This document shows positions 2 through 12,463 of a stretch of 13,543 nt of DNA, one piece after another. Within the stretch, counting starts at the first letter, position 1, and every line of letters begins with the position of its first letter. The translations under genes were made by a program, and so were the position numbers. Source of the stretch: a virus (Duplodnaviria > Heunggongvirae > Uroviricota > Caudoviricetes); the IMG/VR virus record IMGVR_UViG_2657245483_000004; one strand, given 5' to 3'. Below the pieces are notes generated by a model. It was not told where the DNA came from. It saw nothing but the letters and a program-made list of their open reading frames with translations, and ran no database searches.

Positions 2-1282
2 TTAATTTTTCATTGCTTCGTTATGGGGCATGGTTGGGGCAAACTCGCTTAACTGTGTATTTAACAAAGCTACCTGTGCATTATTGTTTTCAGACATCCA
101 TTTTCCGTATACCTGAAATACCATTTGCGCATCTGCATGGCCCATCTGGTTTGCTATAAATGCCGGGTTAGCACCAGCTGTCAGCGACCAGCAGGCATAA
201 GTATGTCTCGACTGATATGATTTTCGATGGCGGAGTCCGGCACGTTTTATCGCTGCGTCCCACATCTGCCTTATTGAGTCAACGGTAAAATGGTCACCAT
301 AATTTTTTACTCTCGCTGACACTTCAGGTTGAAAAACAAAGGTGCATTTATGTTTTTCTGTTCTGCCATACTCTCTGAGGTGAACATCAATGATATGCTC
401 TTTGCTCAGTCTCGTTAATGTCATCTGACTCCGGAGAGCGTCGATTGCTGGCTTAATAAGATGAATGACCCGATTGGTTCCCGCCTGTGTTTTTGGTACC
501 GTGAAACGGTCTTTTGCTAAATTTCTCCTGATCATCATTGTTCCATTTTTCAGATCTATGTCCTCCCATCCAAGTGCACACAGCTCACCAGGGCGAACGC
601 CAGTATAAACAGAAACACACCATAAATTTTTGGCTTGCTGATTTCTGCACGCATCGATAAGACGGATGAATTCCTCCCGCGAAAGAGGATCCGGAATGGT
701 TCTTGATTCCTTTAATGGCGAGATCCCCTTAAACGGGTTATCTGCCAGGTAACCGTTATCAACACCAAACTGGAACACGGCGTTAAGATTTGTCATGTAA
801 TTATTTACAGTTACAGCCGATCTCCCTGGTTGTGTAACAATATAGTTACTTTTGGGGATCTGGTATCCAGTCAGTAGCTCTTTACGAACCTCCAGTAATT
901 TTTCTTTATTAATCGATGAGGCAAGATTTTTTTCACCGATTATGCTCAGGATATTTTTGATGACGGCACGGTATGTGTTGAGTGATGTTTTTGCGACTTC
1001 AGTTTCTTTCAGTGCCAGAAATTTTTCAGCCAGTTCTTTTATGGTTAAATCTTGTCGGGTCTCACCAAATTTTTCCAGATTGCGTGAGGAGGGAAACTGT
1101 TTTGCATAGTCGAAAACACCAGTTTTTATTGCGTAACAAACAGAGGCGCGTAGCTCACCTGCAACGCGCCTGTTTTTTGCTGTGTCAGGAACCCCCAGGT
1201 TTTCCCTGACTCTTACGCCTTTATAAACAAACCAGATACGTAATTTCCCTCCATGGTTTTCCACGCCTGTCGGATATTTCAT
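2..1282 (-). CDS. int: Tyrosine-type phage integrase (site-specific recombinase)
   Basis: Track ORF 2..1297 (-) with TAA stop at 2-4. The C-terminal part shows tyrosine-recombinase hallmarks (...YQSRHTYACW...HADAQMVFQVYGKW...). Start placed at the second in-frame ATG (1280-1282, MKYPTGV...), which has a purine-rich stretch upstream; the first ATG at 1295-1297 has no SD. Terminal position next to an excisionase-like gene. Confidence 0.85.
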   Translation of the reverse strand: MKYPTGVENHGGKLRIWFVYKGVRVRENLGVPDTAKNRRVAGELRASVCYAIKTGVFDYAKQFPSSRNLEKFGETRQDLTIKELAEKFLALKETEVAKTSLNTYRAVIKNILSIIGEKNLASSINKEKLLEVRKELLTGYQIPKSNYIVTQPGRSAVTVNNYMTNLNAVFQFGVDNGYLADNPFKGISPLKESRTIPDPLSREEFIRLIDACRNQQAKNLWCVSVYTGVRPGELCALGWEDIDLKNGTMMIRRNLAKDRFTVPKTQAGTNRVIHLIKPAIDALRSQMTLTRLSKEHIIDVHLREYGRTEKHKCTFVFQPEVSARVKNYGDHFTVDSIRQMWDAAIKRAGLRHRKSYQSRHTYACWSLTAGANPAFIANQMGHADAQMVFQVYGKWMSENNNAQVALLNTQLSEFAPTMPHNEAMKN

Positions 1283-1316
1283 TTCAATTTCTCTCATTAG
1301 TTAGTGTGGCTTTTAG

Positions 1317-1640: not shown

Positions 1641-4112
1641 TTAAGAATCAGCCTGACTCGGGATCAGTTTTTGCCAGATAACTGAAACGTATTTTGCCTG
1701 GTAACGGGCGTCATCAAGTGCATTATGGCGCTCACCTTCGAATGGAATAGCCGTTCTGGCATCGAAGTCTATGGCTTTCCCCAGCTCAACGATTGTGCGT
1801 ACATCGCGATCGTTGTAGTAACGCCACGGGCAGGGGATCCCCTGCCGTTCGTATGAACGGCGCAAAATCGTGTTGTCGAAGTTGGCTCCATTTCCCCAGA
1901 CCTGAACAAAAAATTCACCGGAGTTTTCGTCGATAAATTCCCACAATTGTAACAGTGCATCATCTAACGGGATTTCATCGGTCATAATGGCAGATTGCGC
2001 TTCGCGTGATTGCTTAAGCCACCATTTAATGGTGTCCCGATCAATGACTCCGCCAGCAGTTTCCAGATCGATAGTCTTACTAAATTCCGGTCCCATATCT
2101 CCGGTTTGCGGATCGAAAAATATTGCACCTATTGAGATGATCGGGGCATCAGGATTTTTTCCCATGGTTTCAAGGTCGATCATTAGATGGTCACACGTCC
2201 TGCTGGTGGATGTGATTTCTTGATGACCGTTCACCTTAATTGAGTGATCTGCCGTCTCGCCAGTTTCATTATCGCTATCGTGATGCTGATTGCCGCCAGT
2301 GTTCTCCTTGTGTGGATGTTCAGCGCCTTCCATTTCCTCCGGATCATCTTCCTGAACTTCAATCTGATACTCTTCATCGAATGTTTCCTGGTATGTTGCG
2401 TCGCCCATTACCGCGCCACAATCAGGGCAGTTGCCGCCGCCGGTCTGACCGCAGGCGGTGCAGACTTTTTCCACTTCCTGTTGCGCCACTGATTCAGGCT
2501 GTTTCGTTTCTGGCTCGTTTTGTAACGCATTTGGGCTGTTTTGTTCCGCTTTTTGGTAGTTCCGTTCCGATTCATGCTGGTTCTGGTTCACAGAATCGCG
2601 GGTCTGGATCCCCTTAACCCATTTCGGATCATTCGGGTCACTAATCCCTTCAACAAATTCACCACGTGATGCAGCAAGCAACTTATCGGCGTCAGGCTGG
2701 ATGATATTGGCTGCCTGCATAATTTTGTTTACTTCGTCAGCGGTAACTTTTATCGGCTCTGGTTGTTCTGAATCTTCAGCGGTATCTACATTTTGCGGTA
2801 AGCCCGTGTATGTGCCATTTTTTCGGGCAAAATATTCTTCTTTTGTGATTTCAGTGGCGCCAGCAGCCAGTGCCTTATCCAGACCAGAAAGTTTGTTTGC
2901 GCGACCGTATTTTTCTCCGTCCTTATCTGCGAAGAGGAAATAGAACGGCCCCTCACGCTCTACAGATGGTTCAGCTTCCGGCGCGGTTTCATTTTTTGGG
3001 ATATCAGATACCTCAGTTTCCACTGCATCAGTTTGTGTTTCTGATGACTGGAGAACATCAACAGTGCCCAGGTCTGTTTCTTCATTCTCAAACACGCCCT
3101 TTGTCGTCAGGTATTCGCAGATATATTTGTTCAGTGCTACGGGATCTTTGTGAATGTCGATCGGACGCTCACGGACAAGGCCAAAAATAGTTTGGCGGTC
3201 GTAGCGAAGGGCATCAGGCTGTTTGCGCATTGATGCCGAGATACGCTTCCAGTCTTCGCGGTCGTTGTCGATAACTTCATTTTTTGCCCAGCGATGGATG
3301 CTGCCGTCAATGTTTCCGGCATCCACATCACCAGGCCAGAGAGCGTAGGCCAGTTCGTCATCCAGTGTTTTCCATGTCTGCTTGTATTCGCGATGAATGG
3401 CAGCAATGACCGGGCTGATTTTTCCTGTTGAATTTTCAGTGTACTGTTGATTGGCTCTGGCGCGGGCGAGATCAACAACAGACGTGTATTTTCCGGTTTC
3501 CTTGCGTTCACCTTCGCGACGTTTTTTCCAGATGCGCATCTCTGCCTGAATTTCGGGCCATTTAGCACCAGGAATACATTTATGCTTAACCCACCCAATG
3601 GCGTGCAACTTAAGCTCCGGATACATGGCGTTAACTTCTGGCATTTTCATCAACGCTTCAACGATATGTCCGTCGAATGTTGCCATGTCTTCCTGCAACA
3701 ATTCCTGTGCGCTAATAACCATATCAACGGTGATGTTTTCACATGTGTCGAACTTAACCATGACAGCGTTCTGTACTTCAGGGGCCAGCTTGTCAAAAGT
3801 GACGTTCATCGGATCGGATTCAGTCTCAACCGGGACAAAAGAAGCAGACTCCTCATCCCAGCGGTTTTCCTGCATATATTCAGCATCCCATGAATCGAGG
3901 GCAGGGCGGGGTATGCCAGGTTTATCCTCGCAGACAATAAATTTATAAGCGCAGTCCTGAGCAGCCGGATAATGTTCCAGGAATTGCCAGTGAAATTTTG
4001 CTCGAGCACGGCGTTCGTCGCCAGCTTCAATGGCTGTGGCTACAGCCACAGCGCCTTCTTCCCTTGTTGCCAGTTCGTCAGGAATAGCGGCGCAAATAAA
4101 GACTTTACTCAT
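1641..4112 (-). CDS. Large phage exonuclease (exodeoxyribonuclease VIII-like; C-terminal DEDDh 3'-5' exonuclease domain, central zinc ribbon)
   Basis: Track ORF 1641..4148 opens at a TTG. Start placed at ATG 4110-4112 (MSKVFICAAIPDE...), which has GAGG about 10 nt upstream. C-terminus shows Exo I (MIDLETMG), Exo II (WGNGANFDN) and Exo III (HNALDDARY) motifs. Central CTACGQTGGGNCPDCG is a C-x2-C-x8-C-x2-C ribbon. A mid-protein segment (DKLLAASRGEFVEGISDPNDPKWVKGIQTRD) matches my recollection of E. coli RecE-family proteins. Confidence 0.8.
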   Translation of the reverse strand: MSKVFICAAIPDELATREEGAVAVATAIEAGDERRARAKFHWQFLEHYPAAQDCAYKFIVCEDKPGIPRPALDSWDAEYMQENRWDEESASFVPVETESDPMNVTFDKLAPEVQNAVMVKFDTCENITVDMVISAQELLQEDMATFDGHIVEALMKMPEVNAMYPELKLHAIGWVKHKCIPGAKWPEIQAEMRIWKKRREGERKETGKYTSVVDLARARANQQYTENSTGKISPVIAAIHREYKQTWKTLDDELAYALWPGDVDAGNIDGSIHRWAKNEVIDNDREDWKRISASMRKQPDALRYDRQTIFGLVRERPIDIHKDPVALNKYICEYLTTKGVFENEETDLGTVDVLQSSETQTDAVETEVSDIPKNETAPEAEPSVEREGPFYFLFADKDGEKYGRANKLSGLDKALAAGATEITKEEYFARKNGTYTGLPQNVDTAEDSEQPEPIKVTADEVNKIMQAANIIQPDADKLLAASRGEFVEGISDPNDPKWVKGIQTRDSVNQNQHESERNYQKAEQNSPNALQNEPETKQPESVAQQEVEKVCTACGQTGGGNCPDCGAVMGDATYQETFDEEYQIEVQEDDPEEMEGAEHPHKENTGGNQHHDSDNETGETADHSIKVNGHQEITSTSRTCDHLMIDLETMGKNPDAPIISIGAIFFDPQTGDMGPEFSKTIDLETAGGVIDRDTIKWWLKQSREAQSAIMTDEIPLDDALLQLWEFIDENSGEFFVQVWGNGANFDNTILRRSYERQGIPCPWRYYNDRDVRTIVELGKAIDFDARTAIPFEGERHNALDDARYQAKYVSVIWQKLIPSQADS

Positions 4113-4204
4113 TTGTTTTAACCTCATGACAGATTTAAGGATGAACAAATCCCTGCCATTGCTGGCATATAAGAATGAAACCGGATATTTATTACGGAAC
4201 TGTT

Positions 4205-4750: not shown

Positions 4751-4808
4751 AAAAAGGGCGGCAGAGCAGTCACGGAGTAAAACTGATACCGCCAAACGTC
4801 ACCAGAAA
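4751..4808 (-). ncRNA. dicF: DicF small regulatory RNA
   Basis: Minus-strand sequence TTTCTGGTGACGTTTGGCGGTATCAGTTTTACTCCGTGACTGCTCTGCCGCCCTTTTT matches recalled DicF, including the 3' GC stem plus T-run (plus 4751-4770). Positioned between ydfC and dicB. Confidence 0.8.
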
Positions 4809-5974: not shown

Positions 5975-6613
5975 TTAAATATCTTGTTGAATTTTAAAGC
6001 ATACGCCCAATATGCAAGATAGATCATCCAGCATAATTGAAGGGTAGCGAGGATTCGTGGGGACTAAAAGAATATCCGGCCCTTCTATCTCCAGTTTACG
6101 AATGACAGGTGTTGTGGTCCCTTTGGGTAAGGCAAGGACAATATTTCCTGGTTGTACGGTTCGATCGGGATCAACAAAAACTGTTGAACCATTTGGGATG
6201 GAAACTCCCCCACCAGATGTTGACATACTGTCACTCTCTAGAACAACTGCAAAGGTATTGACCGGGATTTCTCCGACAAGCTGCACACAAGAGGTTATTG
6301 AGGAATTTTTCATATAATCACTCCAGCTTGCTGCCTGCTGAAGTGATAGTAGCGGAACCGTTTTTATCGGCGGTAAAGATAGATCAAGCGAATCACCTGT
6401 ATTTAACTCTCCTCCATTAAGAAGCCAATTTTCGTTTACTTTCAATATTTTTGCCAGTGAACTTATGTAACGCGAGGACGGCGCTCCTCCACCGTTCATC
6501 CATTGACTTACGGAGCCTTTTGATGCGCCAGTGCCATTGACAAGGTCTTTGCCTTTCAGGTTTAGCGCATGCATACGTTGGGTTATGCGTTCAGATATAG
6601 TTTGCTTGCTCAT
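5975..6613 (-). CDS. CI-like prophage repressor (XRE-family HTH N-terminus, S24/LexA-like peptidase C-terminus)
   Basis: Track ORF, 212 aa. N-terminal HTH-like segment (ISERITQRMHALNLKGKDLVNGTGASKGSVSQWMNG); C-terminal part of the size and Gly/Ser-rich character of S24 autoprotease domains. Divergent from a cro-like gene. Confidence 0.85.
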   Translation of the reverse strand: MSKQTISERITQRMHALNLKGKDLVNGTGASKGSVSQWMNGGGAPSSRYISSLAKILKVNENWLLNGGELNTGDSLDLSLPPIKTVPLLSLQQAASWSDYMKNSSITSCVQLVGEIPVNTFAVVLESDSMSTSGGGVSIPNGSTVFVDPDRTVQPGNIVLALPKGTTTPVIRKLEIEGPDILLVPTNPRYPSIMLDDLSCILGVCFKIQQDI

Positions 6614-7357: not shown

Positions 7358-7428
7358 CTGACAATAGCCATATCGAATCGCTTCCGGCAACTCGTGAGTA
7401 AAAAGATTCGGTATCAGAAGAGGTGAGT

Positions 7429-8499
7429 ATGGCTAACGCCTGGCTCAGATTATGGCATGACATGCCAAATGACCCTAAGTGGCGAACAATTGCCAGGGTG
7501 TCAGGGCAGCCAATTGCAACAGTGATGGCAGTGTATATCCACCTCCTGGTGAGCGCGTCACGAAATGTCACGCGAGGTCACATTGATGTCACGACAGAAG
7601 ATTTGGCAAGTGCGCTCGACGTGACAGAAGAGGTAATTGATTCAATTTTGCAGACGATGCAGGGGCGGGTACTTGATGGTGATTTAATCACTGGATGGGA
7701 AAAACGCCAGGTGCTGAAAGAGGACAACGGCAATATTTCGCAAACCGCAAAATCTCCGGCAGAGCGCAAGAGGGCGCAGCGAGAGAGGGAAAGAAAGCGG
7801 GAACAAAATGGCGATTGTCACGGCGCGTCACGAAATGTCACGCACATGTCACGACGAGTCACGACAGATAAAGATACAGATAAAGATACAGATCAAGAAG
7901 ATCAAAACACTATGGTCCATGGCGTAAAAAACGCCACGAACCAGGCAGGGGATGTTCAGACCGTCAATCCTGGTCAGCCAGCAGGCACGACACCGGAAGC
8001 CGATTCAGCGTATGCGCTGAAAGCCGATTCGGGCGCTGTGCAGCAGGTGATGACCCCAAGGCCGGAGCAATCACACCAACTGCAGCAGCCTGAAGCCGAT
8101 TCCGCCATTCAGCGGGAAGCCGATCGGGTAGTCCCGGAAAACACCGGGCTGTCTGTGGGACGAGTGGATTATCCGGATGTGTTCGAACAGGTCTGGCGGG
8201 AGTACCCGTTGCGTGCCGGAGCAAACCCGAAGAAATCCGCTTTCAGTGCCTGGAAGGCCAGATTACGCGAGGGGGTGCCACCAGAGGCCATGCTGGATGG
8301 CGTGAGGCGTTACGCAAGATACTTGGCGGCTACCGGGAAAACGGGAACGGAATTTGTTCAGCGAGCGACGACGTTTTTTGGACCGGACCGGAATTTTGAG
8401 AACCCCTGGTTGCTCCCGGTAAGCGGCACGAACAACCAGCGTTGTGTGAATCATATTTCTGAACCGGATACCGAAATTCCACCGGGCTTCAGGGGGTAA
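7429..8499 (+). CDS. Phage replication initiation protein (O-like; DUF1376-type N-terminal domain)
   Basis: Track ORF 7423..8499 opens at GTG. ATG at 7429-7431 has GAGGTGA 5 nt upstream. N-terminus (MANAWLRLWHDMPNDPKWRTIARVSGQPIATVMAVYIHLLVSAS) resembles prophage replication proteins. Iteron-like repeats lie inside the gene, as with ori-lambda inside O. Confidence 0.75.
   Translation: MANAWLRLWHDMPNDPKWRTIARVSGQPIATVMAVYIHLLVSASRNVTRGHIDVTTEDLASALDVTEEVIDSILQTMQGRVLDGDLITGWEKRQVLKEDNGNISQTAKSPAERKRAQRERERKREQNGDCHGASRNVTHMSRRVTTDKDTDKDTDQEDQNTMVHGVKNATNQAGDVQTVNPGQPAGTTPEADSAYALKADSGAVQQVMTPRPEQSHQLQQPEADSAIQREADRVVPENTGLSVGRVDYPDVFEQVWREYPLRAGANPKKSAFSAWKARLREGVPPEAMLDGVRRYARYLAATGKTGTEFVQRATTFFGPDRNFENPWLLPVSGTNNQRCVNHISEPDTEIPPGFRG
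7553..7600. repeat. Iteron-like cluster 1: four GTCAC(G/A) copies at helical spacing
   Basis: GTCACG at 7557, 7567 and 7588, GTCACA at 7577 (spacings 10, 10, 11 bp). The 21-mer GCGCGTCACGAAATGTCACGC (7553-7573) is repeated exactly at 7823-7843. Confidence 0.55.
7817..7908. repeat. Iteron-like cluster 2 followed by an A-rich tandem repeat (candidate phage origin)
   Basis: Five GTCACG copies at 7817, 7827, 7837, 7848, 7858 (spacings 10, 10, 11, 10). Then GATAAAGATACA twice (7867-7890) and a degenerate third, GATCAAGAAGATCAAAAC (7891-7908). Confidence 0.55.
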
Positions 8500-8539: not shown

Positions 8540-8962
8540 GTGGCAAAAGTTTTTACACAAGAAGAGCGAGAAAAAATTAAAGGGCAGGTTGTTGAACTCG
8601 TACGCCAGAGTGGGCGTGAGACGTTACGGCAACTGGAAGTCAAGACAGGTGCGACAAGATATCTGATGAGCGTTCTCGCAAGAGAGCTGGTTGCCAGCGG
8701 CGATGTATACAACTCCGGCTACGGGTTATTCCCCTCTGAACAGGCGCGTAAGGACTGGCAAAACGCCCGCAAAAAACTCTCGAGGGCAAAGGTGAAGAAA
8801 CCTGCTGTGGTTGATCCGGACCTTATCTGGTCATCACCTGACGGAGAAATACGTCGCTACGACAGTCGCCTAAACATAATCTGTCGCGAGTGCCGGAAGA
8901 GTGAAGCTATGCAGCGTGTACTGGCTTTCTATCAGGGTAATTTTCAGGAGGCGGTACTGTGA
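8540..8962 (+). CDS. Hypothetical early-region protein (140 aa)
   Basis: Track ORF. GTG start at 8540 preceded by AGGAGGG with a short spacer. Follows the replication initiator in the position where lambdoid phages usually encode a helicase loader, but it is too small and shows no Walker motifs. Confidence 0.55.
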   Translation: MAKVFTQEEREKIKGQVVELVRQSGRETLRQLEVKTGATRYLMSVLARELVASGDVYNSGYGLFPSEQARKDWQNARKKLSRAKVKKPAVVDPDLIWSSPDGEIRRYDSRLNIICRECRKSEAMQRVLAFYQGNFQEAVL

Positions 8963-10075: not shown

Positions 10076-10304
10076 AACGCGAAAATCCACCAGCATCCGG
10101 AAACCTGATTACAGATTCCCAGATAAGGCAATGAGCTACCTGGCGCAGAACGGGCTGATAAGTATGGGGAATGTTTTACGATGAATATTTAGACTAAAGA
10201 GTTTGTAACGCTATGTAAGTGATTTTTTCTGGTTTAGATATTTATATGTCCGGCCAAATTGAGGTGTGTTTAAATGTAATTGCACATTGATTGTAGGAGG
10301 AATA

Positions 10305-10484
10305 ATGAAAAACGCATTGCAGTTTTTGTTTGTTGCGTTCTGGTTGTTCGTATCATGTATGCCCATCATCTTCACAGCAAGGTATATGGAAAAAGTTGAT
10401 GTTTTGATATTAATATTTGGATATATAAATGCCCTTTTTTTAGGGGTGTTCATGGCGGTCATGTGCATTGAATACTGGCGGTAA
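10305..10484 (+). CDS. Small membrane protein (59 aa, two predicted transmembrane helices)
   Basis: MKNALQFLFVAFWLFVSCMPIIFTARYMEKVDVLILIFGYINALFLGVFMAVMCIEYWR. AGGAGG lies 5 nt upstream of ATG 10305. Two hydrophobic stretches. Sits in a visibly AT-rich islet. The antisense track ORF 10211..10468 lacks an SD. Confidence 0.55.
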   Translation: MKNALQFLFVAFWLFVSCMPIIFTARYMEKVDVLILIFGYINALFLGVFMAVMCIEYWR

Positions 10485-10539
10485 ATACAGCGAACGCCAT
10501 TGGTTTAGTTGGATATTTACTGTGCCGGACAAAAACGGT

Positions 10540-10567
10540 TTGCGGGGAAATCTTAGTTAAGTAGAAT
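10540..10567 (+). promoter_or_regulatory. Candidate promoter of the hok mRNA
   Basis: TTGCGG (10540-10545), 16-bp spacer, TAGAAT (10562-10567). The predicted 5' end near 10573 begins the GCGGGTGCTTGAGG element that is complementary to the 3' end. Confidence 0.45.
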
Positions 10568-10611
10568 GACTGCGGGTGCTTGAGGCTATCTGTCTCAGGC
10601 ATGAACACCAA

Positions 10612-10683
10612 AAGGCAGATAGAGAAAAGCCCCAGTTAACATTACGCGTCCTGCAAGACGCTTAACATTAATCTGAGGCCATA
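10612..10683 (-). ncRNA. Putative Sok-like antisense RNA (approximate bounds)
   Basis: Minus-strand promoter-like TTGACC (plus 10714-10719), 18-bp spacer, TAATCT. The transcript would be antisense to the mok start and leader. A minus-strand hairpin (GCGTC-ttgcag-GACGC) is followed by a T-rich stretch. Inferred by analogy with hok/sok loci; ends not determined. Confidence 0.3.
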
Positions 10684-10686
10684 TCT

Positions 10687-10746
10687 ATGCGACACATAGA
10701 GATTAGCCTCTTACGGACCGAAAGGTCAAGGAGAAGCAGGCTATGA
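10687..10746 (+). CDS. mok-like leader ORF (19 codons) coupled to hok
   Basis: ATG 10687 ... TGA 10744-10746, overlapping the hok ATG (10743-10745) as ATGA; AAGGAGAAG lies within it just upstream of hok. Shorter than the plasmid R1 mok, so assignment is by position. Confidence 0.4.
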   Translation: MRHIEISLLRTERSRRSRL

Positions 10747-10898
10747 AGCAGCAAAAGGCGATGTTAATCGCCCTGATCGTCATCTGTTTAACCGTCATAG
10801 TGACGGCACTGGTAACGAGGAAAGACCTCTGCGAGGTACGAATCCGAACCGGCCAGACGGAGGTCGCTGTCTTCACAGCTTACGAACCTGAGGAGTAA
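10743..10898 (+). CDS. hokD: Hok-family type I toxin (51 aa), HokD/RelF-like
   Basis: Not in the track (under 60 aa). MKQQKAMLIALIVICLTVIVTALVTRKDLCEVRIRTGQTEVAVFTAYEPEE: single transmembrane helix plus conserved Hok C-terminal part. Matches recalled HokD (RelF). Confidence 0.85.
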   Translation: MKQQKAMLIALIVICLTVIVTALVTRKDLCEVRIRTGQTEVAVFTAYEPEE

Positions 10899-10967
10899 GA
10901 GACCTGGCGGGGGAGAAATCCCTCGCCACCTCTGATGTGTCAGGCATCCTCAACGCACCCGCACGTA

Positions 10968-10993
10968 ACCCGCTTCGGCGGGTTTTGTTTTTT
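10968..10993 (+). terminator. Intrinsic terminator at the 3' end of the hok mRNA
   Basis: ACCCGC-TTCG-GCGGGT stem-loop followed by TTTGTTTTTT. The 3' fold-back element (10948-10962) lies immediately upstream. Confidence 0.6.
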
Positions 10994-11065
10994 CCTGGCA
11001 TTCTGGTTTACAATTCGCACGCCAGCCTGAACAACTGGCACCTGCTGCGCCAGCAGAGACAACCG

Positions 11066-11344
11066 ATGGCGCACGATACCAAATTACACAATTCTAATGA
11101 TTCTGCCGTCTTTGCCAGTAGGTGCGGACGGCGTTTTCACGCATTCAAATCAGACTGGTTCCAGCATCCTCCATGCACTGAAGAGCAGGCGGAATGGATA
11201 ATTCAGTGTTACCGCAGGCGCGGATACGAGGTTAAGAAAGCTCTTAGCCTCGACTACCGTCACTGGATAATCTCAGTCAGACTCCCTTACTCCGAACGCC
11301 CACCGCGTTCATCCCGCACATACCAGCAACGGATCTGGAGGTAA
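11066..11344 (+). CDS. rem: Rem-like small protein
   Basis: MAHDTKLHNSNDSAVFASRCGRRFHAFKSDWFQHPPCTEEQ... The track ORF starts at 10937 inside the hok terminator, so the first ATG downstream of it (11066) is used. Position between hok and the DUF968 gene matches the Qin order as recalled. Weak SD. Confidence 0.5.
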   Translation: MAHDTKLHNSNDSAVFASRCGRRFHAFKSDWFQHPPCTEEQAEWIIQCYRRRGYEVKKALSLDYRHWIISVRLPYSERPPRSSRTYQQRIWR

Positions 11345-11345
11345 C

Positions 11346-12395
11346 GTGCGGGTATTACTTCGACCTGTTCTGGTACCGGAACTCGGGGTGGTGATCGTTA
11401 AGCCGGGCCGTGAATCCATGCCGGTATTCCACAATACCCGGGTACTGGTGGAGCCGGAACCGAAAAGCATGCGTAATCTGCCGTCCGGGGTCGTTCCTGC
11501 CGTTCGCCAGCCGCTGGTGGAAGACAAAACATTGCTGCCGTTTTTCAGTAACGCACGGGTGATTCGTGCTGCTGGTGGTGCTGGTGCATTGTCTGACTGG
11601 CTGTTGCGCCATATTAAATCCTGCCAGTGGCCACACGGCGATTATCACCACAGTGAAACCGTCATTCACCGTTATGGTACCGGCGCAATGGTGTTGTGCT
11701 GGCACTGCGACAACCAGCTGCGTGACCAGACATCCGAATCACTCGAGCAACTTGCTCATCAAAACCTGTCAGCATGGATGATTGACGTCATCGGTCACGC
11801 AATAAGCGGTACGCAGGAGCGTGAATTATCTCTGGCTGAATTATCCTGGTGGGCGGTCCGAAATCAGGTGGCGGATGCGCTACCTGAAGCGGTATTACGT
11901 CGCTCGCTGGGATTACCAGCGGAAAAAATCCGCTCAATGTACCGCGAAAGCGACATCGTACCGGGAGAGCAGACCGCCACCAGCATATTGAAACAGCGCA
12001 CAAAAAATCTTGCACTGTTGCCTCACGCCCACCAGGAACAACACCCACTACAGGAAAGGACGGTGGTAAGCATCACCGTTGATCCTGAGTCTCCGGAATC
12101 TTTCATGAAGCTACCTAAACGTCGCCGCTGGGTTAAGGAGAAATACACTCGCTGGGTGAAGACACAGCCGTGTGCTTGCTGCGGTATGCCAGCCGACGAT
12201 CCGCATCATCTGATTGGTCACGGGCAGGGCGGAATGGGAACCAAAGCACATGATCTTTTTGTGTTGCCTTTATGCAGAAAGCATCACGACGAACTGCATA
12301 CGGATACCGTGGCATTTGAAGAGAAGTATGGCTCCCAACTGGAGCTGATTTTTCGATTTATCGATCACGCGCTGGCAATTGGTGTGCTGGCCTAA
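11346..12395 (+). CDS. ydfU: DUF968-family protein (YdfU-like) with C-terminal Cys/His cluster
   Basis: Track ORF, 349 aa. GTG start with GGAGG 8 nt upstream; the rem stop TAA at 11342-11344 ends one nucleotide before the GTG. C-terminal PCACCGMPADDPHHLIGHGQGG...LPLCRKHHDELH. Confidence 0.8.
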   Translation: MRVLLRPVLVPELGVVIVKPGRESMPVFHNTRVLVEPEPKSMRNLPSGVVPAVRQPLVEDKTLLPFFSNARVIRAAGGAGALSDWLLRHIKSCQWPHGDYHHSETVIHRYGTGAMVLCWHCDNQLRDQTSESLEQLAHQNLSAWMIDVIGHAISGTQERELSLAELSWWAVRNQVADALPEAVLRRSLGLPAEKIRSMYRESDIVPGEQTATSILKQRTKNLALLPHAHQEQHPLQERTVVSITVDPESPESFMKLPKRRRWVKEKYTRWVKTQPCACCGMPADDPHHLIGHGQGGMGTKAHDLFVLPLCRKHHDELHTDTVAFEEKYGSQLELIFRFIDHALAIGVLA

Positions 12396-12453: not shown

Positions 12454-12463
12454 NNNNNNNNNN
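12454..12463. other. Run of 10 N (assembly gap or masked bases)
   Basis: Literal n characters in the sequence; they interrupt the Q-like ORF. Confidence 0.99.

Follow-up and report, generated by a model that had tools for sequence, protein, structure and literature searches.

A free-standing hok/mok/sok-type cassette in a lambda-like Escherichia coli prophage, related to hokW-sokW and to the truncated hokD of K-12

Setting and parts of the locus

The cassette described here occupies positions 10540-10993 of a 13,543-nt stretch of viral DNA, which is called the window throughout. It belongs to the early region of a lambda-like E. coli prophage, with the replication genes on one side and a DUF968 (ydfU-like) gene on the other. 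The neighbours comprise an integrase, a RecE-like exonuclease, DicF, a repressor, a replisome organizer, a Ren-like protein and the DUF968 protein. Homology to other prophages begins at about 10527-10555 and stops at about 10992; homology to K-12 likewise stops at the hok terminator. An annotated RefSeq genome matches the central 701 bases with 100% identity. An apparent junction beside yahK/yahL, which is absent from all complete E. coli genomes, suggested that the prophage was cut there; this reading was rejected, since the supposed junction consists of 10 N at 12454-12463, which mark a scaffold gap.

The earlier note had described a complete and free-standing hok/mok/sok-type locus, and every regulatory part of plasmid R1's hok/sok system could indeed be mapped here: the hok promoter, tac, its three alternative partners (the nearby metastable hairpin, ucb and the 3' fbi), a leader open reading frame (ORF), the Hok ORF, a terminator and a Sok gene (Table 1). 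The Hok protein scores 82.9 bits against Pfam PF01848 (cutoff 22), and residues 6-47 are covered. The Rfam model RF01794 matches 10574-10745 over its full length (1-157) with 106.7 bits (gathering score 59; E-value 6.7e-24). This 'sok' match lies on the hok-sense strand; therefore, it supports the homology of the leader and not the existence of an antisense transcript.

Table 1. Features of the cassette, in window coordinates
Feature	Position	Strand	Basis or remark
hok promoter, -35-like hexamer TTGCGG	10540..10545	+	read from the sequence; 16-nt spacer to the -10; identical in 933W
hok promoter, -10 TAGAAT	10562..10567	+	exactly 6 nt 5' of a conserved GGG
predicted full-length hok mRNA	10574..10992	+	probable ends, from the RF01794 start, the start of tac-fbi pairing, the terminator and the fold
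tac, 5' translational activator element GGGTGCTTGAGG	10574..10585	+	pairs with fbi in the minimum-energy fold
next downstream partner of tac (metastable hairpin in the nascent RNA)	10592..10602	+	predicted fold
predicted Sok antisense RNA, ~69 nt	10625..10693	-	projected from the 71-nt sokW annotation of 933W
ucb, anti-Shine-Dalgarno box AAAGCCCCAG	10626..10635	+	tac-ucb stem predicted for 63 nt and 139 nt; also part of the Rfam consensus structure
leader Shine-Dalgarno (SD) GAGG	10675..10678	+	8 nt 5' of ATG 10687; the same in all 33 distinct homologues
mok-like leader ORF, 19 codons (MRHIEISLLRTERSRRSRL)	10687..10746	+	TGA 10744-10746 overlaps the hok ATG
Sok promoter, -10 TAATCT	10700..10705	-	positional equivalent of the sokW -10 TAACCT
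Sok promoter, -35 TTGACC	10724..10729	-	read from the sequence; 18-nt spacer to the -10
hok SD AAGGAG	10728..10733	+	read from the sequence; conserved in the R1-type locus and K-12
hok toxin gene (HokD, 51 aa)	10743..10898	+	Pfam PF01848
GC-rich 3' UTR hairpin GGCGGGGG-AGAAAT-CCCTCGCC	10906..10927	+	in both the full-length and the 3'-truncated folds
fbi, fold-back inhibitory element CCTCAACGCACCC	10948..10960	+	bulged C at 10954
intrinsic terminator of hok mRNA	10967..10993	+	scan: 7-bp stem 10967-10984, then a T run

Both promoters that had been proposed are found at conserved positions, although their match to the consensus is weak. A generic promoter scan of 10400-11100 returned 0 sigma-70-like sites, so the hok and Sok promoters, both below its threshold, are weak consensus matches. 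Consequently, the promoter calls rest on positional conservation and on a published sokW promoter mutant. On the plus strand, the -35-like hexamer matches 3/6 consensus positions, and homologues with unrelated upstream contexts carry other TTGnnn hexamers at 16-18 nt. Among 69 distinct homologous upstream regions, 68 carry a TAnnnT hexamer at exactly the same distance, 6 nt, 5' of the conserved GGG. On the minus strand, the -10 hexamer falls at the position of the sokW -10. A 'promoter-less' sokW mutant with substitutions around the -10 lost its antitoxin function (PMC8621323), and by our reading of primers YO-421/422 these substitutions fall on the -10 hexamer itself.

The promoter of the putative Sok gene, the 5' tail complementary to the leader start and the terminator hairpin all lie at positions homologous to those of the annotated sokW. 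The predicted Sok RNA has an unpaired 5' tail, a long terminator hairpin and a U run, and its fold reaches -29.3 kcal/mol (z = -5.0). The hok transcript probably starts at about 10574, since the conserved pairing described below begins at G10574; the RNA duplex would thus comprise 12 bp and a bulge rather than 14. Folding of 10574-10992 gives -175.2 kcal/mol (z = -8.2). The intrinsic terminator of the initial description was recovered by a terminator scan, with a T run behind the matched stem.

Fold-back pairing and alternative 5' structures

It had been proposed that a 5' element of the locus is almost perfectly complementary to a 3' element. The 5' element, GCGGGTGCTTGAGG, is present, but at 10572-10585, one base to the left of the 10573-10586 first given; the 3' element, CCTCAACGCACCCGC, lies at 10948-10962 as described. 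Their complementarity consists of 8 bp, the bulged C 10954 and 6 bp. The duplex energy is -27.7 kcal/mol, compared with -16.8 +/- 2.3 kcal/mol in 2000 shuffles of the 3' UTR, none of which reached the observed value (0/2000). Apart from its own reverse complement, the best partner of the 5' element on both strands of the window is the 3' element, and the tac-fbi pairing closes the minimum-free-energy fold of 10574-10992. The pairing is far beyond chance.

Comparative evidence for the pairing was obtained by anchored extraction of tac and fbi from homologues and explicit counting of pairs. All six core pairs are kept in 37/37 distinct homologues, and at one pair U-A is replaced by C-G, a compensatory change, in 7 sequences and by the intermediate U-G in 2. 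In register, 85% of the tac-fbi cells are paired, compared with 35-53% when the two elements are slid against each other, and the covariation score was reached by no shuffle. Pairs that involve 10571-10573 hold in only 17-23 of the 37 homologues.

The other partners of tac appear in the predicted folds of 5' fragments. The metastable hairpin is the minimum-energy fold of the 31-nt fragment (-16.9 kcal/mol, z = -5.3), and the tac-ucb stem is that of the 63-nt and 139-nt fragments. In the full-length fold, ucb is instead partnered with the mok SD region. The expected 'open' state with tac-ucb pairing was not reproduced in a 3'-truncated RNA (10574-10946, an arbitrary end), which folded with the metastable hairpin and a paired leader AUG region; only the isolated 5' fragments gave tac-ucb. 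Thus, thermodynamic prediction does not cleanly reproduce the open state. The leader SD pairs with GCCTC at 10706-10710 (dcb). RNAalifold, applied to the Sok target hairpin in 33 variants, recovered the invariant mok-SD/dcb stem alone, which carries no covariation information. The 3' UTR hairpin at 10906-10927, whose fifth pair is G-U, A-U or G-C among the homologues, is likely the point at which 3' trimming would stop.

Relatives of the cassette and its proposed working

The nearest relative is the hokW-mokW-sokW locus of the Stx2 phages 933W/Sp5 (Takada et al. 2021, PMC8621323; NC_000924), which shares 92% nucleotide identity over 10536-10962, a span that reaches from the promoter to the end of fbi. 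Both loci reside in lambdoid prophages, at different genome positions. They have in common the -35 and -10 of the hok promoter, tac, ucb, the Sok terminator hairpin, the position of the Sok -10, the hok SD and fbi, and the two Hok proteins differ only near the C-terminus. Among the differences, mokW, of 70 codons, extends hokW in frame, while the present leader has 19 codons and its stop lies on the hok ATG. The Sok 5' tail and the target sequence differ from those of sokW, and the Sok -35 reads TTGACC, 18 nt from the -10, where sokW has TTGCCT and a 17-nt spacer. A clear intrinsic terminator follows fbi here, whereas the 933W sequence diverges at this point.

The hok/sok (parB) system of plasmid R1 presents the same order of tac, metastable hairpin, ucb, mok SD/dcb, Sok target, hok, fbi and terminator, and its leader ATG, like the present one, stands 56-58 nt upstream of that of hok. 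An R1-type IncFII hok locus aligns with the cassette in the blocks GCTTGAGGCT, AGCCCC..AGTTAA, TAGCCTCTTAC, CAAGGAGAAG and GCTTACGAA. R1 hok/sok is plasmid-borne, in contrast to the prophage cassette, and the Hok proteins are only ~39% identical. The R1 mok gene has 70 codons and overlaps hok out of frame, compared with the 19 codons of the leader here. The R1-type tac-fbi core carries C-G where the present one has U-A (the C-G form was seen here in Photorhabdus-type loci), and the Sok terminator hairpin is ~16 nt longer than that of R1, which appears as an insert in the Rfam alignment. The chromosomal hokC (gef)/mokC/sokC locus, in turn, has the same leader architecture and tac-fbi pairing, and its Hok is ~82% identical to the present one. 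In E. ruysiae and E. whittamii, hokC has the same 19-codon leader ending on the hok ATG. Unlike the prophage cassette, hokC has a fixed chromosomal location; its -10 is TATAAT rather than TAGAAT, and its fbi variant CTTCAACGCACCC gives a G-U pair.

Taken from sequence comparison, the hok/mok/sok assignment is supported by RF01794, PF01848, the 92% identity to the hokW/mokW/sokW locus of 933W and the block-wise alignment with a hok locus of an R1-type plasmid. The identity of the HokD protein, that same locus identity and the lambda-like prophage setting place the cassette in the hokD/hokW clade. We consider it very probable (about 0.9) that 10540-10993 is a free-standing, structurally intact type I toxin-antitoxin cassette of the hok/mok/sok type belonging to this clade. 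The cassette is real and intact, yet ordinary. It is already known in the sense that the annotation of 933W includes an intact prophage copy of the clade and that the copy in the related Sp5 prophage was studied experimentally (PMC8621323).

The hokD gene (relF) of the K-12 Qin prophage encodes a Hok protein identical to the present one (WP_000813254.1), and a similar neighbourhood with a DUF968/ydfU gene follows downstream. The earlier note stated that K-12 carries this gene fused behind relBE without regulatory elements of its own, and an alignment to relB-relE-hokD of a K-12 derivative bears this out. Homology starts at 10729, inside the hok SD region, and ends at about 10993, so that K-12 keeps only this near-identical part, including the hok SD, fbi and terminator. 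The hok promoter, tac, ucb, the leader ORF start, the Sok target and the Sok gene are lacking in K-12; relB-relE stands directly upstream of hokD instead, and the breakpoint falls exactly at the Sok promoter -35. No RelB/RelE match was found anywhere in the 13,543-nt window, and the K-12-type relBEF arrangement does not occur there. The relBE-hok fusion is not specific to K-12: other E. coli and two IMG/VR contigs have it too, as does a Kluyvera genome whose Hok allele is a different one. The suggestion that the present locus is the ancestral form is reasonable, because the full architecture is common to hokC, Photorhabdus, Erwinia and plasmid loci. That the cassette is potentially active is what we infer.

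The way in which the cassette might work can be transferred from R1 hok/sok and hokW-sokW. The weak promoter would yield an hok mRNA of ~420 nt that, judging from conservation, starts at about G10574. In the nascent RNA, tac is predicted to be held in a local hairpin with 10592-10602; in the finished RNA, both fold prediction and covariation point to its pairing with fbi (10948-10960). In this tac-fbi state, ucb would cover the leader ribosome-binding site, so that neither translation nor Sok binding could take place. Slow trimming of the 3' end to the hairpin at 10906-10927 would remove fbi, tac would switch to ucb, and the leader ribosome-binding site and the Sok target would be freed. An unstable Sok of ~69 nt (10693 to 10625) would then pair with the leader start region, block leader translation and trigger cleavage, as has been demonstrated experimentally for sokW. 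Upon the loss of Sok, the 19-codon leader would be translated through the hok ribosome-binding site; ribosomes stopping at the UGA that overlaps the hok AUG could start Hok synthesis, and Hok would enter the inner membrane and kill or arrest the cell. By analogy with what has been reported for hokW-sokW, the role of the cassette is likely prophage addiction or help with lysis on induction.

An intact cassette may nevertheless be physiologically silent, that is, weakly transcribed or permanently repressed, so that the loss of Sok causes no killing and the cassette persists only as a hitch-hiker in the prophage. The weak consensus matches of both promoters would fit such a state. Decayed copies exist elsewhere (loci L085 and L123), so purifying selection is not universal. 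The chromosomal hokA, hokB and hokC reportedly give no post-segregational killing, according to the summary in bioRxiv 10.1101/2025.08.07.668861. Against silence stands the conservation of all regulatory elements, with compensatory changes. The nearest relative, hokW-sokW, is toxic, repressed by Sok and induced on prophage induction (PMC8621323), and R1 hok, when present once in the chromosome, is lethal if Sok is missing (PMC9841398). In addition, Hok was 100% identical in the best 80 of 576 IMG/VR matches, which are ranked by similarity to the query and are not a random sample. On balance, we regard a silent cassette as rather unlikely.

Leader configuration and natural variation

The leader had been described as a mok-like ORF joined to hok through ATGA. 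It was found as such: its ATG is at 10687, it has 19 codons and the ATGA lies at 10743-10746. The configuration is a minority one. A leader ATG 57 nt upstream of and in frame with hok was found in 67 of the 79 leader-bearing loci of the IMG/VR-based set (which includes 933W and the present locus) and in 27 of 40 genome loci. Relative to the tested hokW, the frame of the present leader differs through indels of -2 and +1. These counts and indels could be taken to mean that the 19-codon leader is a frameshifted, crippled mok with weakened coupling, and that the cassette represents a hokW-type variant that is attenuated or dead.

Several observations make a crippled mok improbable. Translation of hok in R1 requires mok to be read by ribosomes as far as the start of hok, and stop codons further on have no effect on it (PMC9841398); therefore, by analogy, coupling should persist with a leader whose stop lies on the hok ATG. 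The same 19-codon configuration is present in this locus and in 11 of 80 IMG/VR loci, as well as in 5 of 40 genome loci from at least three lineages. The 56-nt/19-codon state recurs separately in the hokD clade, in hokC of E. ruysiae and E. whittamii, and in Erwinia/Kalamiella. Moreover, the exact 71-nt leader variant is contained in 783 E. coli records and has been recombined into several contexts with different promoters and 5' hairpins, which is why we read it from the sequences as an established allele and not a private lesion. Spacings of 56, 57 and 58 nt between the leader ATG and the hok ATG all occur, the last of them in R1 itself; thus, the frame is not conserved within the family. 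That the 5'-3' complementarity and the ORF arrangement arose by chance around a small hydrophobic ORF, to which the shortness of the elements and the empty generic promoter scan might lend some colour, is refuted by the shuffles, the covariation, the Rfam E-value and the conservation of the architecture across genera.

The block 10679-10700, which forms the Sok 5' tail and the first leader codons, varies more than any other part of a leader that is otherwise highly conserved. Copies of hok that reside in the same genome often carry different versions of this block. The Sok target of co-resident copies differed in 3 of 4 genomes and was identical in 1 of 4. Such variation would fit diversifying selection for mutually orthogonal Sok specificities. 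If this were true, multiple prophage hok/sok copies in one cell would not protect against one another's loss of antitoxin, i.e., there would be no cross-protection. Judged from the sequences, a spacing of 56 nt would give an upstream ORF of 19 aa, 57 nt a Hok extended at its N-terminus and 58 nt an overlapping Mok like that of R1, and the minority upstream-ORF state of the present cassette may tune the strength of coupling. That the variation in the Sok-tail block and in the leader-hok spacing is functional rather than neutral is offered as a tentative idea, and a doubtful one.

At identical loci, RefSeq marks only the hokD coding sequence and leaves the Sok RNA, the leader ORF and the mRNA boundaries unmarked. 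Consequently, the coordinates given in Table 1 could be transferred to many genomes. Beyond annotation, the significance of the locus is small. It illustrates that K-12 hokD is a truncated derivative with a breakpoint at the Sok promoter. The R1 mok stop-codon mutants have natural counterparts in the three leader-ORF configurations, which, together with the variable Sok target, may provide a ready-made panel for studies on translational coupling and Sok specificity in this family; the question is an incremental one in a system that is already well understood.

A hokD/hokW-clade cassette in a lambdoid prophage

The cassette at 10540-10993 is an ordinary, previously described member of the hokD/hokW clade. 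An earlier note, made from the sequence alone, had called it a complete hok/mok/sok locus, and this was confirmed: the PF01848 and RF01794 matches, the 5'-3' pairing, the leader ORF and the terminator were all located. The Hok peptide scores 82.9 bits against Pfam Hok/Gef PF01848 (cutoff 22). Rfam RF01794 ('sok') is matched over its full length at 10574-10745 with 106.7 bits (gathering score 59). This match lies on the hok-sense strand and thus indicates a 5' leader homologous to hok leaders, without implying that an antisense RNA exists. The two matches, homology to phage 933W and alignment with K-12 also support how the note interpreted the locus. The hokW-sokW locus is 92% identical to the window locus. 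It is toxic and sokW-repressed, HokW is made on prophage induction, and hokW-sokW raises phage release about two-fold (PMC8621323). We infer that this particular copy of the cassette is active.

Features of the window, with the evidence for their placement
Feature	Coordinates	Strand	Remarks
Integrase	2-1297		
RecE-like exonuclease	1641-4148		
DicF sRNA	4756-4807	-	Rfam RF00039, full-length, 76.7 bits
Repressor	5975-6613		
Replisome organizer	7423-8499		
Ren-like/DUF977 protein	8540-8962		
72-aa ORF	10266-10484	+	just upstream of cassette
hok -35-like TTGCGG	10540-10545	+	weak match
hok -10 TAGAAT	10562-10567	+	TAnnnT at fixed position in homologues
5' element (tac) GCGGGTGCTTGAGG	10572-10585	+	read from sequence
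Predicted Sok RNA	~10693 to 10625	-	projected from 71-nt sokW annotation
Leader ORF, 19 codons	ATG 10687 to TGA 10744-10746	+	GAGG 8 nt before ATG
Sok -10 TAATCT	10705 to 10700	-	aligns with 933W Sok promoter
Sok -35 TTGACC	10729 to 10724	-	aligns with 933W Sok promoter; 18-nt spacer
hok toxin ORF	10743-10898	+	51-aa peptide MKQQKAMLIALIVICLTVIVTALVTRKDLCEVRIRTGQTEVAVFTAYEPEE
3' element (fbi) CCTCAACGCACCCGC	10948-10962	+	read from sequence
hok terminator-like hairpin, then T run	10967-10993	+	terminator scan
Small PHROG 1212 protein			between hok cassette and DUF968/ydfU-like gene
DUF968/ydfU-like protein	11346-12395		

The neighbours of the cassette are typical of a lambdoid prophage early region, and DicF marks the prophage as Qin/Rac-like; dicB and ydfD adjoin DicF in the close relative L137. 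Homology with other prophages begins at about 10527-10555 and stops at about 10992, so the cassette behaves as a unit bordered by its own promoter and terminator. The 72-aa ORF has no Pfam or PHROG match, and no gene is annotated there in the identical region of RefSeq genome NZ_CP033762. Further downstream, a run of 10 N (12454-12463) joins prophage sequence, broken off just past the start of the ORF after the DUF968 gene, to core chromosome (the last ~22 nt of yahK, then yahL at 12728-13543). The prophage-yahK/yahL junction occurs in 0 of 5426 complete E. coli genomes. Because the run is a scaffold gap, two contigs meet inside the window, and the prophage-yahK adjacency is not established.

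Part of a 701-nt query was matched by 4971 of 5426 complete E. coli genomes, and at least 80% of it by 1860; 102 phage records match. A recent survey puts Hok in almost 80% of the genomes of Enterobacteriaceae, with enrichment in prophages (10.1101/2025.08.07.668861). The gene order in a K-12 derivative is relB, relE, hokD, rem, a hypothetical gene, ydfU and ydfT. The earlier note's statement that K-12 carries the same Hok behind relBE without its own regulatory elements was borne out, as alignment extends from 10729 to ~10993: K-12 thus keeps the hok ribosome-binding site, coding sequence, fbi and terminator and lacks the promoter, tac, ucb (the anti-Shine-Dalgarno box), leader start and Sok gene. 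The breakpoint lies at the Sok -35. K-12 shares its Hok accession with a genome that matches window 10400-11100 at 100% identity. The relBE-hok fusion (loci L034, L038, L086, L107 and L123) also occurs in another E. coli, two IMG/VR contigs and one Kluyvera genome. RelB/RelE of Kluyvera are 97-99% identical to K-12 and its Hok is 70% identical to HokD, so the relBE cassette is associated with more than one hok allele.

Fold-back pairing and transcript boundaries

The complementarity of the two fold-back elements and the 3' coordinates held, whereas the 5' element, placed by the earlier note at 10573-10586, lies one base to the left. The duplex consists of 8 bp, a bulged C and 6 bp, with an energy of -27.7 kcal/mol against a shuffled mean of -16.8 +/- 2.3 (0 of 2000 3' UTR shuffles reach it). 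Window-wide and on both strands, the 3' element is the best partner of the 5' element, its own reverse complement set aside, and tac-fbi closes the minimum-energy fold of 10574-10992 (-175.2 kcal/mol, z = -8.2). Both elements were extracted from 37 distinct homologous loci (E. coli prophages, hokC loci, Kluyvera, Citrobacter, Photorhabdus, Pantoea, Erwinia). All 37 retain the six core pairs; at one pair, 7 sequences carry C-G in place of U-A and 2 a U-G intermediate, and in-register pairing holds in 85% of cells versus 35-53% with the partner slid; no shuffle reaches the covariation score. The pairs at 10571-10573 are retained in just 17-23 of the 37, so the conserved pairing begins at G10574.

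The other proposed signals were found as well. For the hok promoter, TAnnnT stands exactly 6 nt before a conserved GGG in 68 of 69 distinct upstream regions, those with unrelated far-upstream sequence included, which places the transcript start at about 10574; its -35 is weak, and a generic promoter scan of 10400-11100 found no site. The intrinsic terminator was recovered by the scan, and the minus-strand promoter-like site aligns with the 933W Sok promoter. For hokW-sokW of Sp5, antitoxin function was lost in a 'promoter-less' mutant substituted around the sokW -10 (PMC8621323); primers YO-421/YO-422 suggest that native AGGTTA at the -10 position was replaced (PMC8621323). The fold predicted for the Sok RNA (-29.3 kcal/mol, z = -5.0) has a free 5' tail followed by a long hairpin and a U run. 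In 933W (L002, 1908-1960), homology stops directly after fbi, without an obvious intrinsic terminator behind it, unlike window 10963-10993, so the hokW mRNA 3' end may form differently. The canonical terminator is common to the window and K-12.

Leader spacing and the variable Sok tail

As proposed, the leader ORF meets hok in an ATGA, its TGA overlapping the hok ATG. A leader was present in 79 loci of a set comprising the best 80 of 576 IMG/VR loci, 933W and the window; within this set, its ATG lies 57 nt from the hok ATG, in frame, in 67/79 and 56 nt away in 12/79 (the window and 11 IMG/VR loci). With one genome per species, the spacing was 57 nt in 27 loci, 58 nt in eight and 56 nt in five, the last being hokC of E. 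ruysiae and E. whittamii, and Erwinia/Kalamiella. The 57-nt spacing yields a 70-aa extended Hok, as mokW is annotated in 933W, and in the 58-nt loci the leader ORF overlaps hok out of frame and is 55-69 aa long, as in plasmid R1. A 56-nt leader is a 19-aa ORF that must stop on the hok ATG because Hok starts Met-Lys (ATGAAR). All three spacings are found inside the hokD clade (window 10687-10746; loci L083-L136). The R1-like frame of the window is open from 10700 to TGA 10887-10889, with no start codon there.

According to R1 mutagenesis, mok has to be translated only as far as the hok start region, later stop codons being harmless (PMC9841398); the 56-nt configuration of the window should therefore still couple translation. 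The 19-codon leader is no private lesion, given that the exact 71-nt segment is shared by 783 E. coli records and is found alongside several different promoters and 5' hairpins.

Across 47 distinct leaders (loci L003-L093), variability in the hok leader peaks at window 10679-10700, the block that covers the Sok 5' tail and the first leader codons; its mean column entropy is 0.64 bits versus 0.04-0.27 bits in the other segments, and it has at least 10 sequence types. Co-resident copies differ in this block in 3 of 4 genomes checked and are identical in 1. Its variability might come from selection for non-cross-reacting Sok specificities.

Predicted conformational switching and possible mRNA editing

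In the R1 model, tac requires three alternative partners (summarised in PMC9841398), and all three are present in the window locus. The first, 10592-10602, lies directly downstream; folding of the 31-nt nascent RNA pairs it with tac in a predicted hairpin (-16.9 kcal/mol). The second, ucb (10626-10635), pairs with tac in the predicted folds of 63-nt and 139-nt fragments, a stem also seen in the Rfam consensus structure. The third, fbi, pairs with tac in the predicted full-length RNA, where ucb is paired with the leader ribosome-binding site region. The predicted 139-nt fold has this site paired to GCCTC 10706-10710 (dcb), with the leader AUG inside a small hairpin. For an arbitrarily truncated RNA (10574-10946), the minimum-energy fold contains the metastable hairpin of tac with 10592-10602 and not tac-ucb, so thermodynamic prediction alone fails to give the active form.

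Codon 47 of Hok reads TAC with a G after it, inside CTTACGAA (10881-10884). According to a recent preprint, hokC, hokD and hokE mRNAs are A-to-I edited, as by TadA on hokB, which recodes tyrosine to cysteine (cysteine 46 in the preprint numbering). If hokD-type editing holds true here, the edited base would be A10882, changing Tyr47 to Cys.
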